Below are positions 2,607 to 8,707 of a DNA stretch of 8,707 nucleotides, piece by piece (the first letter of the stretch is position 1; each line of letters starts with the position of its first letter). The stretch is from the UHGV virus genome UHGV-0140516. One strand, written 5' to 3'. The notes beneath the pieces are model-generated. The model made no database searches. It had not been told where the DNA came from and was given only the letters and a program-made list of their open reading frames with translations. The position numbers were made by a program, and so were the translations under genes. Source of the DNA: a virus.

Positions 2607-2906
2607 ATGAGAACATATTTATCTGGCTTGACTGCCAGCGGTTATGCACACCCCAAAATTATCCCCGGCGCTATTTATCTGGATAAGAACGGTAACAGAG
2701 TAACGGTAAAAGAACTGATGTTTGACCGTGTGTATTTTATTCGTGATGGATATTCATTTCATAGTTCGCTGAACGTGGAGATCTTTATTAGCAGATTCAG
2801 GCGGGAAATCCCGCTTTCCGGAAATAACCATGTGTCATGTCTGGATGTTGATAAAAAACTACAGGAACTGAAAAACATGATTGCCGCGTGGAGAGAGCAG
2901 AAATGA
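2607..2906 (+). CDS. Hypothetical protein (99 aa), unknown function
   Basis: Starts 7 nt after the upstream stop. Its TGA (2904-2906) overlaps the primase ATG (2903-2905) in an ATGA arrangement. No recognisable motif. Confidence 0.5.
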   Translation: MRTYLSGLTASGYAHPKIIPGAIYLDKNGNRVTVKELMFDRVYFIRDGYSFHSSLNVEIFISRFRREIPLSGNNHVSCLDVDKKLQELKNMIAAWREQK

Positions 2907-4720
2907 AAAAAGCGCCAAATTTAAAACACCAGCCGCGTGACAAAATGACGGAAGTCATCATTTTTGCGGGTAGTAATGCGTGGGCACATGCGAAGCAGTG
3001 GCAGGAACAGGACGGGCGACTGGCTGGCGATAACGTGCCTCCTGTCTGGCTTGGAGAGCAACAACTTGCCGAACTGGACAACCTGCAAATCGTACCGGAC
3101 GGACGCTATCGCGTGCGTCTCTATCAGGCGGGGTTATTGCGTCCGGGGCTTGTTAATACCATCGGGCAGAAACTGGCAGTGGCAGGTGTCAGGGATGCTG
3201 ATTATTACCCTGAAGGAATGCACAGCCAGAAACGGGAGAACTGGCGCGAATATCTGGAACGTGAACGGGCAGAGCAGGCGGAAAAGAAAAAGGTAGTTGA
3301 ACTGCCTGTAAAGAAAAAAGAGCGGGTAAAAGACGATAACGCTTCATCACTGGCGCTTAACCAGATGGGAGCAAGTCAACGCGGCGAAGTTCTCCTGGCA
3401 CATTATGGCGGTGAACTGGCGATTCATGCTGACTCTGACACTGTTCACCATTACAACGGCGTTGTATGGGAGCCAGTACAGGATAAAGAATTACAGCGAG
3501 CTATGGCACAGATTTTCATTGATGCGGAGATCAGCTATTCGCAGAACGCCATTAAATCGGCGGTCGATACCATGAAGTTAAGTTTGCCTGTAATGGGGAA
3601 TACAGCCCGTAACCTGATTGGATTCAGTAACGGGGTATTTGATACCAGAACAGGTAATTTTCGGGAGCATAACAAAAACGACTGGTTGTTAATTGCCAGT
3701 GAATTACCTTTCAGCCCACCAGCAGAGGGGGAAACGCTGGCAACACATGCGCCGAATTTCTGGAAGTGGTTACGCCGTTCGGTGGCTGAGAATGACCGCA
3801 AGGCGGATCGCGTACTGGCTGCATTATTCATGGTGCTGGCGAACCGGTACGACTGGCAGTTATTCATTGAGGTAACAGGTCCAGGGGGAAGTGGTAAAAG
3901 CGTGATGGCGGAGATTTGCACCATGCTGGCGGGTAAGGCCAACACAGTATCGGCAAGCATGAAGGCGCTGGAAGATGCAAGGGAACGCGCGTTAGTGGTT
4001 GGCTTTTCGCTGATTATCATGCCGGATATGACCCGCTACGCTGGTGATGGGGCAGGGATTAAGGCTATTACAGGCGGTGACAAGGTGGCAATTGACCCGA
4101 AACACAAAGCCCCCTACTCAACGCGTATTCCGGCAGTAGTGCTGGCGGTTAACAATAACGCCATGTCATTCAGTGACCGCAGCGGGGGGATCTCACGTCG
4201 TCGGGTGATATTCAATTTTTCGGAAGTTGTACCGGAGAACGAACGCGATCCAATGCTGGCGGAAAAAATAGAAGGTGAGCTGGCGGTAGTGATTCGCCAT
4301 CTGCTTACACGGTTTGCTGACCAGGACGAAGCCAGACGCCTGTTATATGAGCAGCAGAAATCTGAAGAAGCACTGGCGATAAAGCGAGAGGGGGATTCGC
4401 TGGTGGACTTCTGCGGCTATCTCATGGCGTCGGTAATGTGTGATGGCCTGTTAGTGGGTAATGCTGAAATTGTGCCATTCAGCCCACGCAGGTATCTCTA
4501 TCATGCCTATCTGGCTTATATGAGGGCACATGGGTTTGGTAAACCTGTAACACTGACGCGCTTCGGTAAAGATATGCCGGGGGCAATGGCGGAATATGGC
4601 AGGGAGTATATGAAACGGAAAACGAAGCACGGTTTTTGTTCAAACGTGACACTGACGGAGGAATCAGAAGACTGGATGCCATCATGTGTATCGGTCACTA
4701 ATGACGATAGTAAAAATTAA
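2903..4720 (+). CDS. P4-alpha-like primase/helicase replication protein (D5-type NTPase)
   Basis: 605-aa ORF. ATG at 2903 is preceded by GGAGAGAG at 2890-2897; the track start at 2888 is GTG. Walker A GPGGSGKS is encoded at 3878-3901, in frame. Followed immediately by the cognate-type iteron array. Large and well anchored. Confidence 0.85.
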   Translation: MKKAPNLKHQPRDKMTEVIIFAGSNAWAHAKQWQEQDGRLAGDNVPPVWLGEQQLAELDNLQIVPDGRYRVRLYQAGLLRPGLVNTIGQKLAVAGVRDADYYPEGMHSQKRENWREYLERERAEQAEKKKVVELPVKKKERVKDDNASSLALNQMGASQRGEVLLAHYGGELAIHADSDTVHHYNGVVWEPVQDKELQRAMAQIFIDAEISYSQNAIKSAVDTMKLSLPVMGNTARNLIGFSNGVFDTRTGNFREHNKNDWLLIASELPFSPPAEGETLATHAPNFWKWLRRSVAENDRKADRVLAALFMVLANRYDWQLFIEVTGPGGSGKSVMAEICTMLAGKANTVSASMKALEDARERALVVGFSLIIMPDMTRYAGDGAGIKAITGGDKVAIDPKHKAPYSTRIPAVVLAVNNNAMSFSDRSGGISRRRVIFNFSEVVPENERDPMLAEKIEGELAVVIRHLLTRFADQDEARRLLYEQQKSEEALAIKREGDSLVDFCGYLMASVMCDGLLVGNAEIVPFSPRRYLYHAYLAYMRAHGFGKPVTLTRFGKDMPGAMAEYGREYMKRKTKHGFCSNVTLTEESEDWMPSCVSVTNDDSKN

Positions 4721-4731
4721 ACTTATGGAAT

Positions 4732-4963
4732 AACTGTTCACCACTGTTCACCCTGTCATAAATATCTTTTATATCAGTATATTATAGGGTGAACAGTTAT
4801 TTATGAACTGTTCACCAAACTATTCACTGTTCACCTTTTTGATTGTTTATTGAGCTTCAAGGGTGAACAGTGGTGAACAGTTGGTGAATAGTTTTTGTGA
4901 AACTGTTCACCCCTTAACATTATGAATTAAAAGATAAAATATCAAAAGGTGAACAGGTGAAGG
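4732..4963. repeat. Replication-origin iteron array (P4 ori/crr type): at least 9 perfect TGTTCACC / GGTGAACA octamers in both orientations with AT-rich spacers
   Basis: Plus-orientation TGTTCACC at 4735-4742, 4745-4752, 4809-4816, 4828-4835 and 4904-4911. Minus-orientation GGTGAACA at 4788-4795, 4862-4869, 4872-4879 and 4948-4955. Degenerate copies at 4821-4828, 4883-4890 and 4956-4963. AT-rich stretches at 4760-4786 and 4918-4946 are candidate unwinding elements. TGTTCACC is the octamer I recall as the P4 alpha-protein binding iteron. Confidence 0.8.
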
Positions 4964-5007
4964 GTTAAAACGCAAAAATTTTAATTTACTGCTGTGAGAT
5001 AAAGCCT

Positions 5008-5253
5008 ATGACAGCGAAGCACACAAAAAAATCACAATCGCACGCCCTTGATTTGACGGAACACTGGTTAAGGGTGTCGATAAAAATCATCGACCGCAAC
5101 GCCGGGGAAGGATATGCGAAAGCACATCCCGAACTGATTAGCGCATTCATGACAACGGCAGCTGCAAACTTTGCCACGCTGACAGAACGGGAGATTGCCG
5201 AAGCGGAACAGGTGACAACCATCAACGTTAAAACCGGAGAGCAGACAGCATGA
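5008..5253 (+). CDS. Hypothetical protein (81 aa), translationally coupled to the SSB-like gene
   Basis: ORF starts just downstream of the iteron array. Its TGA (5251-5253) overlaps the ATG (5250-5252) of the next gene. No recognisable motif; weak RBS. Confidence 0.45.
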   Translation: MTAKHTKKSQSHALDLTEHWLRVSIKIIDRNAGEGYAKAHPELISAFMTTAAANFATLTEREIAEAEQVTTINVKTGEQTA

Positions 5254-5672
5254 CAGCACAGATAGCGGCTTACGGGCGGCTGGTGGCTGACCCGCAGTTA
5301 AAGACCACCAGCAAGGGTACACAAATGACGATGGCTAGTATGGCGGTCCCCCTTCCGTGCAGCCAGGCAGATGACGGAACGGCGACGATGTGGTTATCCG
5401 TCCTGGCGTTTGGCAGACAGGCCGACGCACTGGCAAAACACCACAAAGGCGAACTGGTGAGCGTGGCGGGTAACATGCAGGTAAGCCAGTGGACAGGCCA
5501 GAACGGCGAAACGCGGCAGGGCTGGCAGGTTATCGCAGACAGCGTAATCAGTGCGAGAACGGCGCGACCGGGCGGCAAAAAAGGCCAGCAAGGGCAGGCT
5601 ACTGACGCACTGAACAGGGCAAAACAACAGGCGGGTAACGATGATCCGTACGGGGATAACATACCGTTTTAA
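5250..5672 (+). CDS. ssb: Single-stranded DNA-binding protein family (short SSB-like OB-fold protein with C-terminal DNIPF tip)
   Basis: Aligns by eye to E. coli SSB across the OB fold (G-x-L-x-x-DP; W-x-x-V-x-x-FG-x-x-A; KG-x-x-V-x-x-x-G-x-x-x-x-x-x-WT-x-Q-x-G-x-x-R). Ends in DDPYGDNIPF, resembling the SSB DDDIPF partner-binding tip. Shorter than host SSB (140 versus about 178 aa). Confidence 0.7.
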   Translation: MTAQIAAYGRLVADPQLKTTSKGTQMTMASMAVPLPCSQADDGTATMWLSVLAFGRQADALAKHHKGELVSVAGNMQVSQWTGQNGETRQGWQVIADSVISARTARPGGKKGQQGQATDALNRAKQQAGNDDPYGDNIPF

Positions 5673-5686
5673 GCAACGAGTAACAG

Positions 5687-5710
5687 AAGCCGGAGAAGTC
5701 CGGCTTTTTT
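5687..5710 (+). terminator. Rho-independent terminator after the SSB-like gene
   Basis: Stem AGCCGGA (5688-5694), loop GAAG, stem TCCGGCT (5699-5705), then a T6 run ending at 5710. Confidence 0.7.
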
Positions 5711-5720
5711 ATGCCCCAAA

Positions 5721-5758
5721 AAAAGCCCGATAAGGTCAGAGGGTCTTATCGGGCTTTT
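5721..5758. terminator. Second hairpin with A-run and T-run flanks (possible bidirectional terminator)
   Basis: AAAAGCCCGATAAG (5721-5734), a 10-nt loop, then CTTATCGGGCTTTT (5745-5758). Confidence 0.5.
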
Positions 5759-5838
5759 GCATATGAGGCTTTTATCTAACAGTATGGTGACTACTGTTGC
5801 CGGAAATCATTTCACAATTTGCAACACAACTCAACATT

Positions 5839-5899
5839 ATTGCGTAAAATGAAATCATGATTATAATCACAACTGGATGAACATCCAGTTGTGATTTTT
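5839..5899 (+). promoter_or_regulatory. Candidate promoter of the head-gene operon followed immediately by a 15-bp perfect palindrome and T-run (operator or attenuator hairpin)
   Basis: -35 TTGCGT at 5839-5844, 16-bp spacer, -10 TATAAT at 5861-5866. Perfect inverted repeat AATCACAACTGGATG (5864-5878) and CATCCAGTTGTGATT (5882-5896) with a 3-nt spacer, followed by a T5 run (5895-5899). It sits between the promoter and the RBS of the first head-module ORF. Confidence 0.4.
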
Positions 5900-5923
5900 A
5901 ACGTCAAAGAGGAATTTCCGACT

Positions 5924-6130
5924 ATGGCAGAAGAGAAAAAAGGCGGGGTGACAGTTTACATAAGCCCAGACATCGTGGAGGCGCTCAAGGAACGCCACCA
6001 GCAGAACGTAAAAGCAGGCATTGCGGCAGGACTTGAGCCGCTGGCGATGGTTGAGCCGTCAACAGGCTGGCAGGTACGCGCCTATTTACGCGCGGCGCTG
6101 GGCATGAATCAGACTCATGGGGGTGAATAA
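5924..6130 (+). CDS. Hypothetical protein (68 aa), first ORF of the head module
   Basis: ATG at 5924 with AAAGAGGAA at 5906-5914. The track start at 5891 is GTG inside the palindrome, so it is disfavoured. The stop TAA overlaps the capsid-gene ATG (TAATG at 6128-6132). Confidence 0.5.
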   Translation: MAEEKKGGVTVYISPDIVEALKERHQQNVKAGIAAGLEPLAMVEPSTGWQVRAYLRAALGMNQTHGGE

Positions 6131-7185
6131 TGACAGGCAAAGCAACGGCACTTAACACTAACCAGCTTTTCGCGTACCTGAATCGTGGGGATATTTCGGA
6201 ATTTAAATTCAGTCCGCTGTTTACGTCGCTGTTTTTCCCGAACGTGGCAACCTTCAACACGCAGGACATCATGTTAGATACCCTGGATATTGAAGAAGTC
6301 ACCATGTCGGCTTTTTGTTCGCCTATGGTGGGGAGTCAGGTTCAGCGCGATAAAGGGTACGAAACAAGCACTATCCGCCCTGGCTACATGAAACCAAAAC
6401 ACGAAATCGATCCATCAAAAACCATCATGCGCATGGCTGGAGAAGATCCGGCACAGCTTAACGATCCAACTTATCGCCGTATGCGCCTGATTACTGGCAA
6501 CATGCGCCGCCAGGTAAACGCTATTAAAGCTCGCATAGAATGGCTGGCGGTGAATGCGGTCACGACCGGAAAAAACATCATTGAGGGCGAAGGAATAAAT
6601 AGATACGAAATCGATTGGAAAATCCCGACTAAAAACATCATTACGCAGGGATCGGGCAAAAAGTGGTCTGAGGCAGATAAGGAAACACACGATCCAATCT
6701 ATGACATCGAACTATACACCGATCAGGCTGGTTGCCCCGCCAACGTCATGATTATGGGCGCTGAGGTATGGCGCACGTTACGCAGCTTTAAAAAATTCCG
6801 TGAACTGTACGATCTTTCCCGTGGTTCAGAATCCGCCGCAGAGCTGGCCTGTAAAAACCTGGGCGAAGTAGTGAGCTTTAAAGGCTATCTGGGTGATCTG
6901 GCCCTTATCGTCTATTCCGGCAAATACACCGACAGCGATGGCACCGAAAAATATTTCCTTGAGCCTGATTTGCTTGTCCTGGGCAACACTAACAATAAAG
7001 GGCTGGTGGCCTATGGTGCGATTATGGATCCGGAAGCGGTAAGAACTGGCGCAACGCAAAACATGTACTACCCGAAAAACTGGATTGAGGATGGCGATCC
7101 GGCGATTGAGTACGTGCAGACGCACAGCGCACCGCAGCCGGTACCGGCAGATATTCGCAAATTTGTTACCGTCAAAATTGCTTAA
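6130..7185 (+). CDS. Major capsid protein, lambda gpE family
   Basis: 351-aa product aligns to lambda gpE over its whole length by eye: KFxPLF...LFF near the N-terminus, PGY(V/M)KPKHE, DP-x-x-L-x-DP-x-YRR-x-R-x-I-x-x-NMR, SYKG / SFKG, VVYSG / IVYSG, LGNT, YPKNW and a C-terminal GDPA. Similar length (351 versus 341 aa). Confidence 0.9.
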   Translation: MTGKATALNTNQLFAYLNRGDISEFKFSPLFTSLFFPNVATFNTQDIMLDTLDIEEVTMSAFCSPMVGSQVQRDKGYETSTIRPGYMKPKHEIDPSKTIMRMAGEDPAQLNDPTYRRMRLITGNMRRQVNAIKARIEWLAVNAVTTGKNIIEGEGINRYEIDWKIPTKNIITQGSGKKWSEADKETHDPIYDIELYTDQAGCPANVMIMGAEVWRTLRSFKKFRELYDLSRGSESAAELACKNLGEVVSFKGYLGDLALIVYSGKYTDSDGTEKYFLEPDLLVLGNTNNKGLVAYGAIMDPEAVRTGATQNMYYPKNWIEDGDPAIEYVQTHSAPQPVPADIRKFVTVKIA

Positions 7186-8160: not shown

Positions 8161-8164
8161 ATTG

Positions 8165-8707
8165 ATGAAATCGCACCTGATGAACAAAAAAACCATGGCG
8201 CAAAGCTGCCGGGTAAGTGCTACAGCATTCGACAAGTGGGGAGTGACTCCCGTTGAACGTAAAGGCCGTGAGGCGTTTTATGATGTTGCCAGCGTGATAG
8301 ACAATAGGGTTAACAATGCAATTAGCCAGCTTACAAACGACAAAGGCGAGATTGATGATGATGAACTCTTACGAGTCAGGATCAGATTACTGACAGCACA
8401 GGCGGAGGCGCAGGAACTTAAAAACGAGCGCGATCGCGGTGACGTGATTGATACAGAGTTTTGCATGTACGCCCTTTCAAAACTGGCGAGTCAGATTTCA
8501 TCAATCATGGACAGCCTCCCGCTTACTATGCAAAGGAGCTTCCCACAGATGACCCCCGTCATGCTGGATGGCCTGAAAAAAGAAGTTGTCAGAGCCTGTA
8601 ACGCATGCACAAAACTTGATGAAAACATCCCGCGAATGCTGTCCGATTATCTGATGGAAACTACCGGAAATGTGCCTGATAAGTTTCAGCCGGATAAAGA
8701 CAAGTAA
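8165..8707 (+). CDS. Terminase small subunit, lambda Nu1 family
   Basis: Lambda Nu1 LTRAQADAQELKNARDSAEVVETAFCTFVLSRIAGEIASILDGLPLSVQRRFPE...LDELIPGLLSEY aligns with LTAQAEAQELKNERDRGDVIDTEFCMYALSKLASQISSIMDSLPLTMQRSFPQ...LDENIPRMLSDY. The N-terminal NKK...wHTH region is more divergent. First ATG is at 8165; the track start at 8162 is TTG; the ATG at 8180 matches the Nu1 N-terminus better. Position just downstream of cos, as in lambda. Confidence 0.85.
   Translation: MKSHLMNKKTMAQSCRVSATAFDKWGVTPVERKGREAFYDVASVIDNRVNNAISQLTNDKGEIDDDELLRVRIRLLTAQAEAQELKNERDRGDVIDTEFCMYALSKLASQISSIMDSLPLTMQRSFPQMTPVMLDGLKKEVVRACNACTKLDENIPRMLSDYLMETTGNVPDKFQPDKDK

Follow-up and report, generated by a model that had tools for sequence, protein, structure and literature searches.

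The open reading frame at positions 5250 to 5672 (plus strand) of UHGV virus genome UHGV-0140516, analyzed here as a window of 8,707 nucleotides, encodes a genuine bacterial-type single-stranded DNA-binding protein (SSB) of 140 amino acids (aa), read from ATG to TAA, for which profile and fold comparisons predict binding of single-stranded DNA (ssDNA). The gene (ssb) belongs to the replication module of a phage satellite, and its product likely acts as an accessory SSB during satellite replication, using host partners through its C-terminal tip. Pfam SSB (PF00436) matched residues 5 to 99 of the product at profile positions 4 to 101 of 104 with 59.3 bits (gathering cut-off, 26 bits), and TIGR00621 ("ssb") matched with 61.1 bits (cut-off, 53.95 bits). 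All 15 NCBIfam matches were SSB models, the PHROG phrog_44 ("single strand DNA binding protein") matched with an E value of 1.4e-39, and a PDB sequence search returned 25 distinct matches at E ≤ 1e-3, every one an SSB, the best being Thermotoga maritima 1Z9F (E = 3.5e-10). No PriB, cold-shock, RPA-like, or T7 gp2.5-like family gave a better match than SSB in Pfam, NCBIfam, PHROGs, or the PDB sequence and fold searches; a different OB-fold family was ruled out, since these searches yielded SSB alone. The family membership claimed in the original prediction is thus borne out by PF00436, TIGR00621, phrog_44, and the fold matches, and the check for profile assignment to another OB-fold family left it standing. 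Pairwise dN/dS values of the OB domain across genera were 0.12 to 0.24, which indicates purifying selection rather than a chance open reading frame. A GGAG Shine-Dalgarno-like motif, read from the sequence, lies 10 nt 5′ of the ATG (5236 to 5239, plus strand), and its ccggagag context is also present upstream of ssb in L004 and in EcCICFT073.

The OB-fold ssDNA-binding domain comprises residues 1 to 101 (5250 to 5552, plus strand), as delimited by an AlphaFold2 model, Foldseek, and alignment to the Escherichia coli chromosomal SSB (EcSSB). In the AlphaFold2 model, a single chain built on 99 family sequences, these residues form a five-stranded barrel of SSB topology with block pLDDT values of 83 to 92 and predicted strands at residues 2 to 11, 16 to 19, 25 to 36, 44 to 54, 69 to 82, and 88 to 101. 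The best 50 Foldseek matches in the PDB were all bacterial SSBs, with E values from 1.5e-9 and a probability of 1.00. Three of the four aromatic residues that stack on ssDNA in EcSSB (W40, W54, F60, and W88) are retained, with W48 (5391 to 5393), F54 (5409 to 5411), and W81 (5490 to 5492; all plus strand) equivalent to W54, F60, and W88, while C37 takes the place of W40 and L49 that of H55. The retained positions are also conserved in the clade: among 107 representatives, W48 is kept in 96, F54 in 105, and W, Y, or F at position 81 in 102.

The EcSSB reference was the 178-aa protein P0AGE0, the sequence of which matched PDB 1EQQ over residues 1 to 178. Both proteins (EcSSB, PDB 1EQQ/1EYG) have in common the OB fold with the equivalents of W54, F60, and W88, a G-rich start of the tail, a terminal I-P-F, an aromatic residue at −6, and an Asp at −4, but they are only 25% identical over the OB domain. 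The window SSB is 38 aa shorter, a difference made up of approximately 30 aa of linker, 4 N-terminal residues, and 3 aa of the L45 loop, in agreement with the original prediction of a protein shorter by about 40 aa with a truncated linker. The linker (aa 102 to 130; 5553 to 5639, plus strand), defined by pLDDT and alignment to EcSSB, is short, basic, and predicted to be disordered; it has about half the EcSSB length and carries the basic residues R103, R106, K110, K111, R123, and K125, whereas the EcSSB linker is uncharged and rich in G, Q, and P. The tail from residue 104 to 140 is disordered in the model, with pLDDT below 50 at residues 104 to 117 and 127 to 135, and a low-confidence helix at 117 to 127 is the sole predicted structure within it. 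The linker starts with the clade-specific motif S-A-R-T-x-R-P-G-G-K-K, which takes the form SAR[TS]xRP across the clade. Protein length varies from 116 to 149 aa among 120 close homologues because of insertions and deletions in the linker.

The C-terminal tip (aa 131 to 140; 5640 to 5669, plus strand) is of the NDDPYGDNIPF type, the protein ends in ...AGNDDPYGDNIPF, and the segment is the counterpart of the EcSSB C-terminal peptide (SSB-Ct) DFDDDIPF. The acidic tip claimed earlier holds in part: the D-x-I-P-F end is kept and conserved, but the tip is less acidic than that of the host (PYGDNIPF versus DFDDDIPF), with one acidic residue among the last six against three in EcSSB, as Gly and Asn replace two Asp residues. 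A tip of the form PYGD[N/G/D/E/S]IPF is nearly universal among the 120 close homologues, and the 99-sequence alignment shows no variation at D136 and F140 and at least 90% conservation at I138 and P139, while position 137 (−3) is free to vary among N, G, D, E, and S. In other genera, the tips are DDETPF, DDEAPF, DDEDPF, DDQIPF, and DDLPPF, with QHEDDF in two loci. The few acidic residues and the free position −3 count against binding of host partners by this tip, which is an assumption of the role proposed below.

The window SSB represents a lineage separate from the enterobacterial chromosomal and plasmid SSBs, as judged from profile scores and sequence identity: against NF006533 / PRK09010, the model of that subfamily, it scored 25.1 bits, with a cut-off of 260. 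A search of 1.84 billion cluster representatives retrieved 7198 matches at E ≤ 1e-3 and 330 at E ≤ 1e-10, mostly of 120 to 150 aa; among 113 matches of at least 120 aa, the C-terminal residue was F in 68 and the end was PF in 45. The 330 representatives at E ≤ 1e-10, mostly of this size, indicate that short SSBs with such a tip are a large, ordinary clade. RefSeq already holds an identical protein under the name "single-stranded DNA-binding protein" (WP_000126655.1; L001; 100% identity). RefSeq and the literature already cover the protein itself, its assignment to the SSB family, and its location in the replication module of phage-inducible chromosomal islands (PICIs), and SSBs of mobile elements with short linkers are commonplace. 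The finding is less unusual than the original prediction suggested, given the RefSeq annotation, the copy in the prototype PICI, and the large clade of short SSBs.

Among 50,697 phage genomes, no close homologue was found, the best match being 31% identical, which indicates that the ssb gene is the satellite's own and was not borrowed from lambdoid helpers. The phage matches were mostly SSBs of staphylococcal and streptococcal phages. The best of these, of the 80alpha / PVL type, resemble the window SSB in length (approximately 130 to 150 aa), in the OB fold, short tail, and acidic tip, and in being mobile-element genes that adjoin replication or recombination genes. They are, however, only 27 to 31% identical to it, they come from autonomous phages whereas the window SSB comes from a satellite, and they are linked to Sak recombinases whereas the window ssb is linked to a primase-helicase and an iteron origin. 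A few copies with 57 to 71% identity occur on enterobacterial plasmid records, mostly non-mobilizable, where they are annotated as SSB. Conjugative plasmids encode SSBs of the F-plasmid Ssb type, which are dispensable extras with a host-like tip, can replace host SSB, and are near kin of the chromosomal protein with a similar length. The window SSB is likewise encoded by a mobile element but belongs to a distant lineage.

By gene content and order, the window is an E. coli phage satellite of the EcCICFT073-type Gram-negative PICI group, and homology to the experimentally studied EcCICFT073 predicts that its induction, packaging, and transfer depend on a helper phage. The layout is that of a PICI, with unidirectional int, alpA, an Icd-like/DUF4222 gene, pri, ori, and homologues of late genes. 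The left part encodes, in order, a partial tyrosine integrase (49 to 693), an AlpA-like regulator, a DUF4222 protein, and Pri, a 610-aa primase-helicase (2888 to 4720, plus strand) with D5_N, DUF5906, and Pox_D5 domains according to Pfam, TIGR01613, and phrog_864 ("DNA primase"); Pfam detected no Toprim or Zn-ribbon domain in it. A putative PICI replication origin follows at 4729 to 4958 (no strand assigned), consisting of approximately 10 iterons, ACTGTTCACC / GGTGAACAGT (repeat families D2/D3), arranged as two opposed sets that flank an AT-rich stretch and form the inverted pairs I19 to I25. The same arrangement has been described for the origins of Gram-negative PICIs (PMC6092414). The ssb gene lies approximately 300 bp downstream of the pri gene and the iteron origin, and on its 3′ side, beyond two hairpins, are genes for a lambda-E-type capsid protein, a gpD-type decoration protein, a scaffold-like protein, and a Nu1-like small terminase (TerS). 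Searches of the window for noncoding RNAs returned neither an Rfam family at gathering score nor a tRNA.

An 81-aa open reading frame (5008 to 5253, plus strand; phrog_1231) lies between the origin and ssb, and its TGA stop codon overlaps the ssb ATG as ATGA. This overlap is partly explained by the fact that every ssb starts with Met-Thr (ATGAC...). The 81-aa product is 87.5% identical to the 85-aa product encoded upstream of the EcCICFT073 ssb. As a conserved partner of the SSB it was rejected, being conserved in the E. coli lineage only; the upstream open reading frames of other genera are unrelated.

The prototype Gram-negative PICI, EcCICFT073, was placed in the CFT073 chromosome at 1,377,930 to 1,388,654, where RefSeq annotates an SSB (WP_000126698.1, 136 aa) that is 71% identical to the window protein, with a nearly identical OB domain and the tip PYGDDIPF. 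Its linker is replaced or shortened (RRKTTGTQGNQPPAGG versus KKGQQGQATDALNRAKQQAG in the window). The two islands share the order DUF4222, pri, ori iterons, a small open reading frame of approximately 81 to 85 aa, and ssb, and their integrase (76% identity), capsid (94%), decoration (96%), and orf137 (95%) proteins correspond. They differ in that the Pri proteins are only 47% identical, the EcCICFT073 iteron is CTGTCTACC although it occupies the same place, a PerC gene follows ssb in EcCICFT073, and RppA is encoded where the window has the Nu1-like TerS. The placement of ssb in the replication module of a satellite, proposed from the window alone, is confirmed by pri at 2888 to 4720, the iterons at 4729 to 4958, and ssb next, in the same order as in EcCICFT073. 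A 2023 survey of Gram-negative PICIs likewise placed "Primase, SSB and DUF5906" in the Replication zone, colocalized with mapped origins (PMC10111431). The literature searched yielded no functional study of a PICI SSB.

The ssb gene occurs across the Enterobacterales. Its DNA was present in 1544 of the 5426 complete E. coli genomes, and strain TUM1886 carries an island 98% identical to the window together with the identical SSB. A cross-species scan with one genome per species identified 19 ssb loci, including a weak 20-residue match in Mixta (L022), from Escherichia albertii, Enterobacter, Leclercia, Buttiauxella, Kluyvera, Pluralibacter, Atlantibacter, Shimwellia, Rosenbergiella, and Mixta. 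In the 18 of these loci other than the Mixta match, as well as in EcCICFT073 and the window itself, ssb is preceded by an open reading frame of 610 to 950 aa. All six of the preceding open reading frames that were sampled with Pfam encode primase-helicases, of three architectures: Zn-ribbon/Toprim/DUF927, (Zn-ribbon/)Toprim/DUF5906, and (Toprim/)D5_N/DUF5906/Pox_D5. The genes 3′ of ssb differ between loci (PerC, ProQ/FinO-like, and HK97-type or lambda-E capsid), leaving the primase-helicase as the sole invariant neighbor. Tip type and SSB lineage vary with the host and with the phylogeny of the SSBs. A relationship between tip type and primase type was ruled out, as neither SSB lineage nor tip tracks the primase architecture. 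This independence favors generic host partners over a primase-specific contact. Internally deleted alleles exist in E. coli (e.g., P0095, P0100, and P0115), which indicates that loss of ssb is tolerated.

The EcCICFT073 pri and ori, placed on a thermosensitive plasmid, reportedly allowed its maintenance in DH5alpha at the restrictive temperature (PMC6092414). Since pri and ori suffice for plasmid replication, the island SSB is at most accessory and probably not needed for origin firing; of the earlier proposal that it supports firing, the accessory part can be retained and the requirement cannot. Satellite P4 offers a useful comparison. Its alpha protein, a primase-helicase of the SF3 class, binds iterated origin repeats (ori/crr), and the alpha replicon requires SSB and the Pol III holoenzyme in vitro, both taken from the host. 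To our knowledge, P4 has no ssb gene and uses host SSB. The window thus resembles P4 in being a satellite with its own primase-helicase and iterated origin but, unlike P4, carries ssb.

In the accessory role that we favor, helper induction would activate a rightward AlpA-dependent transcript from which Pri and then the SSB are expressed. Pri would bind the iterons, its SF3-type helicase would unwind the origin, and the satellite SSB, presumably a homotetramer, would coat the exposed strands. The IPF tip could then link these strands to the host proteins that read SSB-Ct, principally Pol III chi but also PriA, primase, and repair factors. The satellite would have its own supply of SSB during the simultaneous replication of helper and satellite, when the host protein may run short. 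The protein would therefore be a booster and not an initiator, and it would work independently of the type of primase-helicase that the island encodes.

Other roles were considered, and the gene neighborhood, the published genetics of EcCICFT073, and the pattern of conservation all bear on them. The original prediction speculated on competition with host or helper SSB for partners: the satellite SSB could displace host SSB on ssDNA or titrate the readers of SSB-Ct and so starve a lambdoid helper of functions in replication or recombination. Lambdoid helpers lack an SSB of their own and rely on that of the host, and the phage genomes hold no close homologue; the conserved tip mimics the host SSB-Ct, and the basic linker with its SAR[TS]xRP motif is unlike that of host SSB and could alter partner choice, all of which fit such interference. 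The genetics argue indirectly against a major interference role, as c1503 (RppA) alone reduced lambda and phi80 plaques when EcCICFT073 post-ori genes were expressed singly, and its deletion returned plaquing almost to the island-free level (PMC6739421). The EcCICFT073 ssb homologue lies within this post-ori region, of which the text of that study (PMC6739421) does not list each gene tested. The ssb gene furthermore adjoins the primase gene and ori, outside the interference/packaging zone, and PADLOC-DB profiles gave no match for the SSB or the four neighboring small open reading frames, so that interference with the helper appears quite unlikely. The same lack of matches rules out the SSB and its neighbors as components of a defense system and also speaks against protective functions. 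One of these, shielding of the island against host nucleases or against defenses that sense ssDNA or SSB, belongs with a broader proposal in which the SSB guards satellite ssDNA or aids a recombinase, such as helper Red-beta, in concatemer formation. Here the Red-beta C-terminal domain is known to bind the E. coli SSB tail, which would suit such cooperation. In 80alpha, coordination of the short SSB with the Sak recombinase is mediated by the 7 C-terminal residues of the SSB tail (PMC11846896), and EcCICFT073 is packaged as concatemers of approximately phage length (PMC10111431), both in favor of recombination. However, neither the window nor any of the 19 related loci shows a recombinase gene linked to ssb, and the invariant neighbor is a primase-helicase, so that we consider recombination unlikely, and protection, taken together with it, equally so.

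A gene that contributes nothing to the life cycle of the satellite, as a dispensable passenger or in decay, would agree with the sufficiency of pri and ori for plasmid replication (PMC6092414) and with the truncated or internally deleted alleles. It is very unlikely in view of dN/dS values of 0.12 to 0.24 across genera, the conservation of the DNA-binding aromatics and the tip, synteny beside three primase types in at least nine genera, and the presence of ssb in more than a quarter of the complete E. coli genomes (1544 of 5426). We also regard as rather improbable a specialized SSB in which the tip and the basic SAR[TS]xRPGGKK segment would seize ssDNA in the induced cell and redirect Pol III chi, PriA, RecQ/ExoI, or Red-beta to the satellite, aiding helper interference or shielding the island from defenses that sense ssDNA or SSB.

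If the accessory role is correct, the island would be another mobile element with its own SSB, which would aid the annotation of PICI replication modules and leave the general understanding of satellites unchanged. It is puzzling that a size-constrained satellite of approximately 10 kb retains 420 bp for a protein that the host makes. That the host already provides SSB was itself counted against an accessory role. The gene is kept beside at least three unrelated types of primase-helicase across the Enterobacterales, and the SAR[TS]xRP motif that follows the OB fold throughout the clade offers a small but concrete handle for functional work.

On the 3′ side of ssb, the two strong hairpins noted above close the replication unit. 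The first is terminator-like and followed by a U-run (5685 to 5708, plus strand; inverted repeat I6), as seen on RNA folding; the second has a 17-bp stem between A- and U-runs (5721 to 5758, no strand assigned; inverted repeat I2) and resembles a bidirectional terminator. A consensus promoter and terminator scan of 4650 to 6200 reported one weak promoter-like site and missed both hairpins, which are clear on folding: the RNA of positions 5670 to 5775 folds with a minimum free energy of −43.8 kcal/mol (z = −5.5 versus shuffled sequences).

Comparison of the island SSB (window 5250-5672, + strand) with its relatives identified a motif, D-S-[VLI]-[VI]-S-A-R-[TS]-[VA]-R-P (aa 97 to 107; window 5538-5570), that lies immediately C-terminal to the OB fold and is present in the short-SSB clade but absent from E. 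coli SSB. Among 107 representatives of this clade, clustered at ≤50% identity, conserved positions include P107 (93/107), R/K103 (92/107), S101, and R106 (86/107 each for the last two). AF2 confidence is low over most of the motif in the window protein. We suggest that this segment could be a linear motif that binds DNA or a partner.

The C-terminal tip, PYGDNIPF in the window protein, is not uniform among the homologues. Those of Enterobacter hormaechei (locus L016, 7001-7450) and Rosenbergiella (locus L017, 3192-3644) terminate in ...RPQHEDDF and lack the I-P-F residues. An HK97-type capsid gene (Pfam Phage_capsid) is located two genes downstream of the SSB homologue in the Enterobacter locus, and its slot in the Rosenbergiella locus is occupied by a 409-aa ORF, known from its position and length. 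These two loci represent a satellite of a different type, in which the SSB tip is altered. Some E. coli homologues, such as P0095, P0100, and P0115, retain the tip but have lost part of the OB fold or of its junction with the linker through in-frame internal deletions, indicating that some islands harbor decayed ssb alleles. A further SSB (65% identity) was found in an Enterobacter-like satellite locus on a contig labelled Chryseobacterium sp. (L009; CACSKA010000004.1), a label that is probably the product of a mislabelled or contaminated assembly.

Upstream of ssb, an 81-aa ORF of unknown function (phrog_1231; window 5008-5253) overlaps the ssb ATG with its stop codon. In EcCICFT073, the prototype Gram-negative PICI of E. 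coli CFT073, the ORF that precedes ssb is 87.5% identical to it, whereas in other genera the slot is filled by unrelated small ORFs. Immediately 3′ of the pri stop codon, window 4729-4958 looks like a PICI replication origin: a 10-nt iteron occurs approximately ten times, as ACTGTTCACC or its complement, in two opposed sets that flank an AT-rich stretch. A different iteron, CTGTCTACC, occupies the equivalent position in EcCICFT073, matching the divergence of its Pri (47% identity to the window protein). The window Pri, the island "primase" (2888-4720, + strand), contains D5_N, DUF5906 (SF3 helicase-like), and Pox_D5 domains, and its N-terminal ∼150 residues match only PHROG families. The profile search detected no Toprim or Zn-ribbon domain in this protein, while related islands encode Toprim-containing primase-helicases alongside the same SSB lineage.

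An Rfam search of the window returned no P4-type CI/C4/isrK RNA at the gathering score. The 365-aa ORF at 1190-2287 looks spurious; strain TUM1886 carries a 98%-identical island, and in its RefSeq annotation the matching stretch holds an Icd-like cell-division inhibitor gene and two small genes on the minus strand in place of this ORF.

At the window edge, where it terminates exactly, lies an ORF for a 181-aa Nu1-like small terminase (8162-8707). EcCICFT073 has no counterpart and encodes the 144-aa RppA (c1503) in that slot, indicating that the packaging-hijack module varies among otherwise similar islands. A perfect 15-nt palindrome with a 2-nt spacer (AATCACAACTGGATG / CATCCAGTTGTGATT; 5865-5896) overlaps the start of a 79-aa ORF, the first gene of the capsid module, and could act as an operator that controls the late genes.
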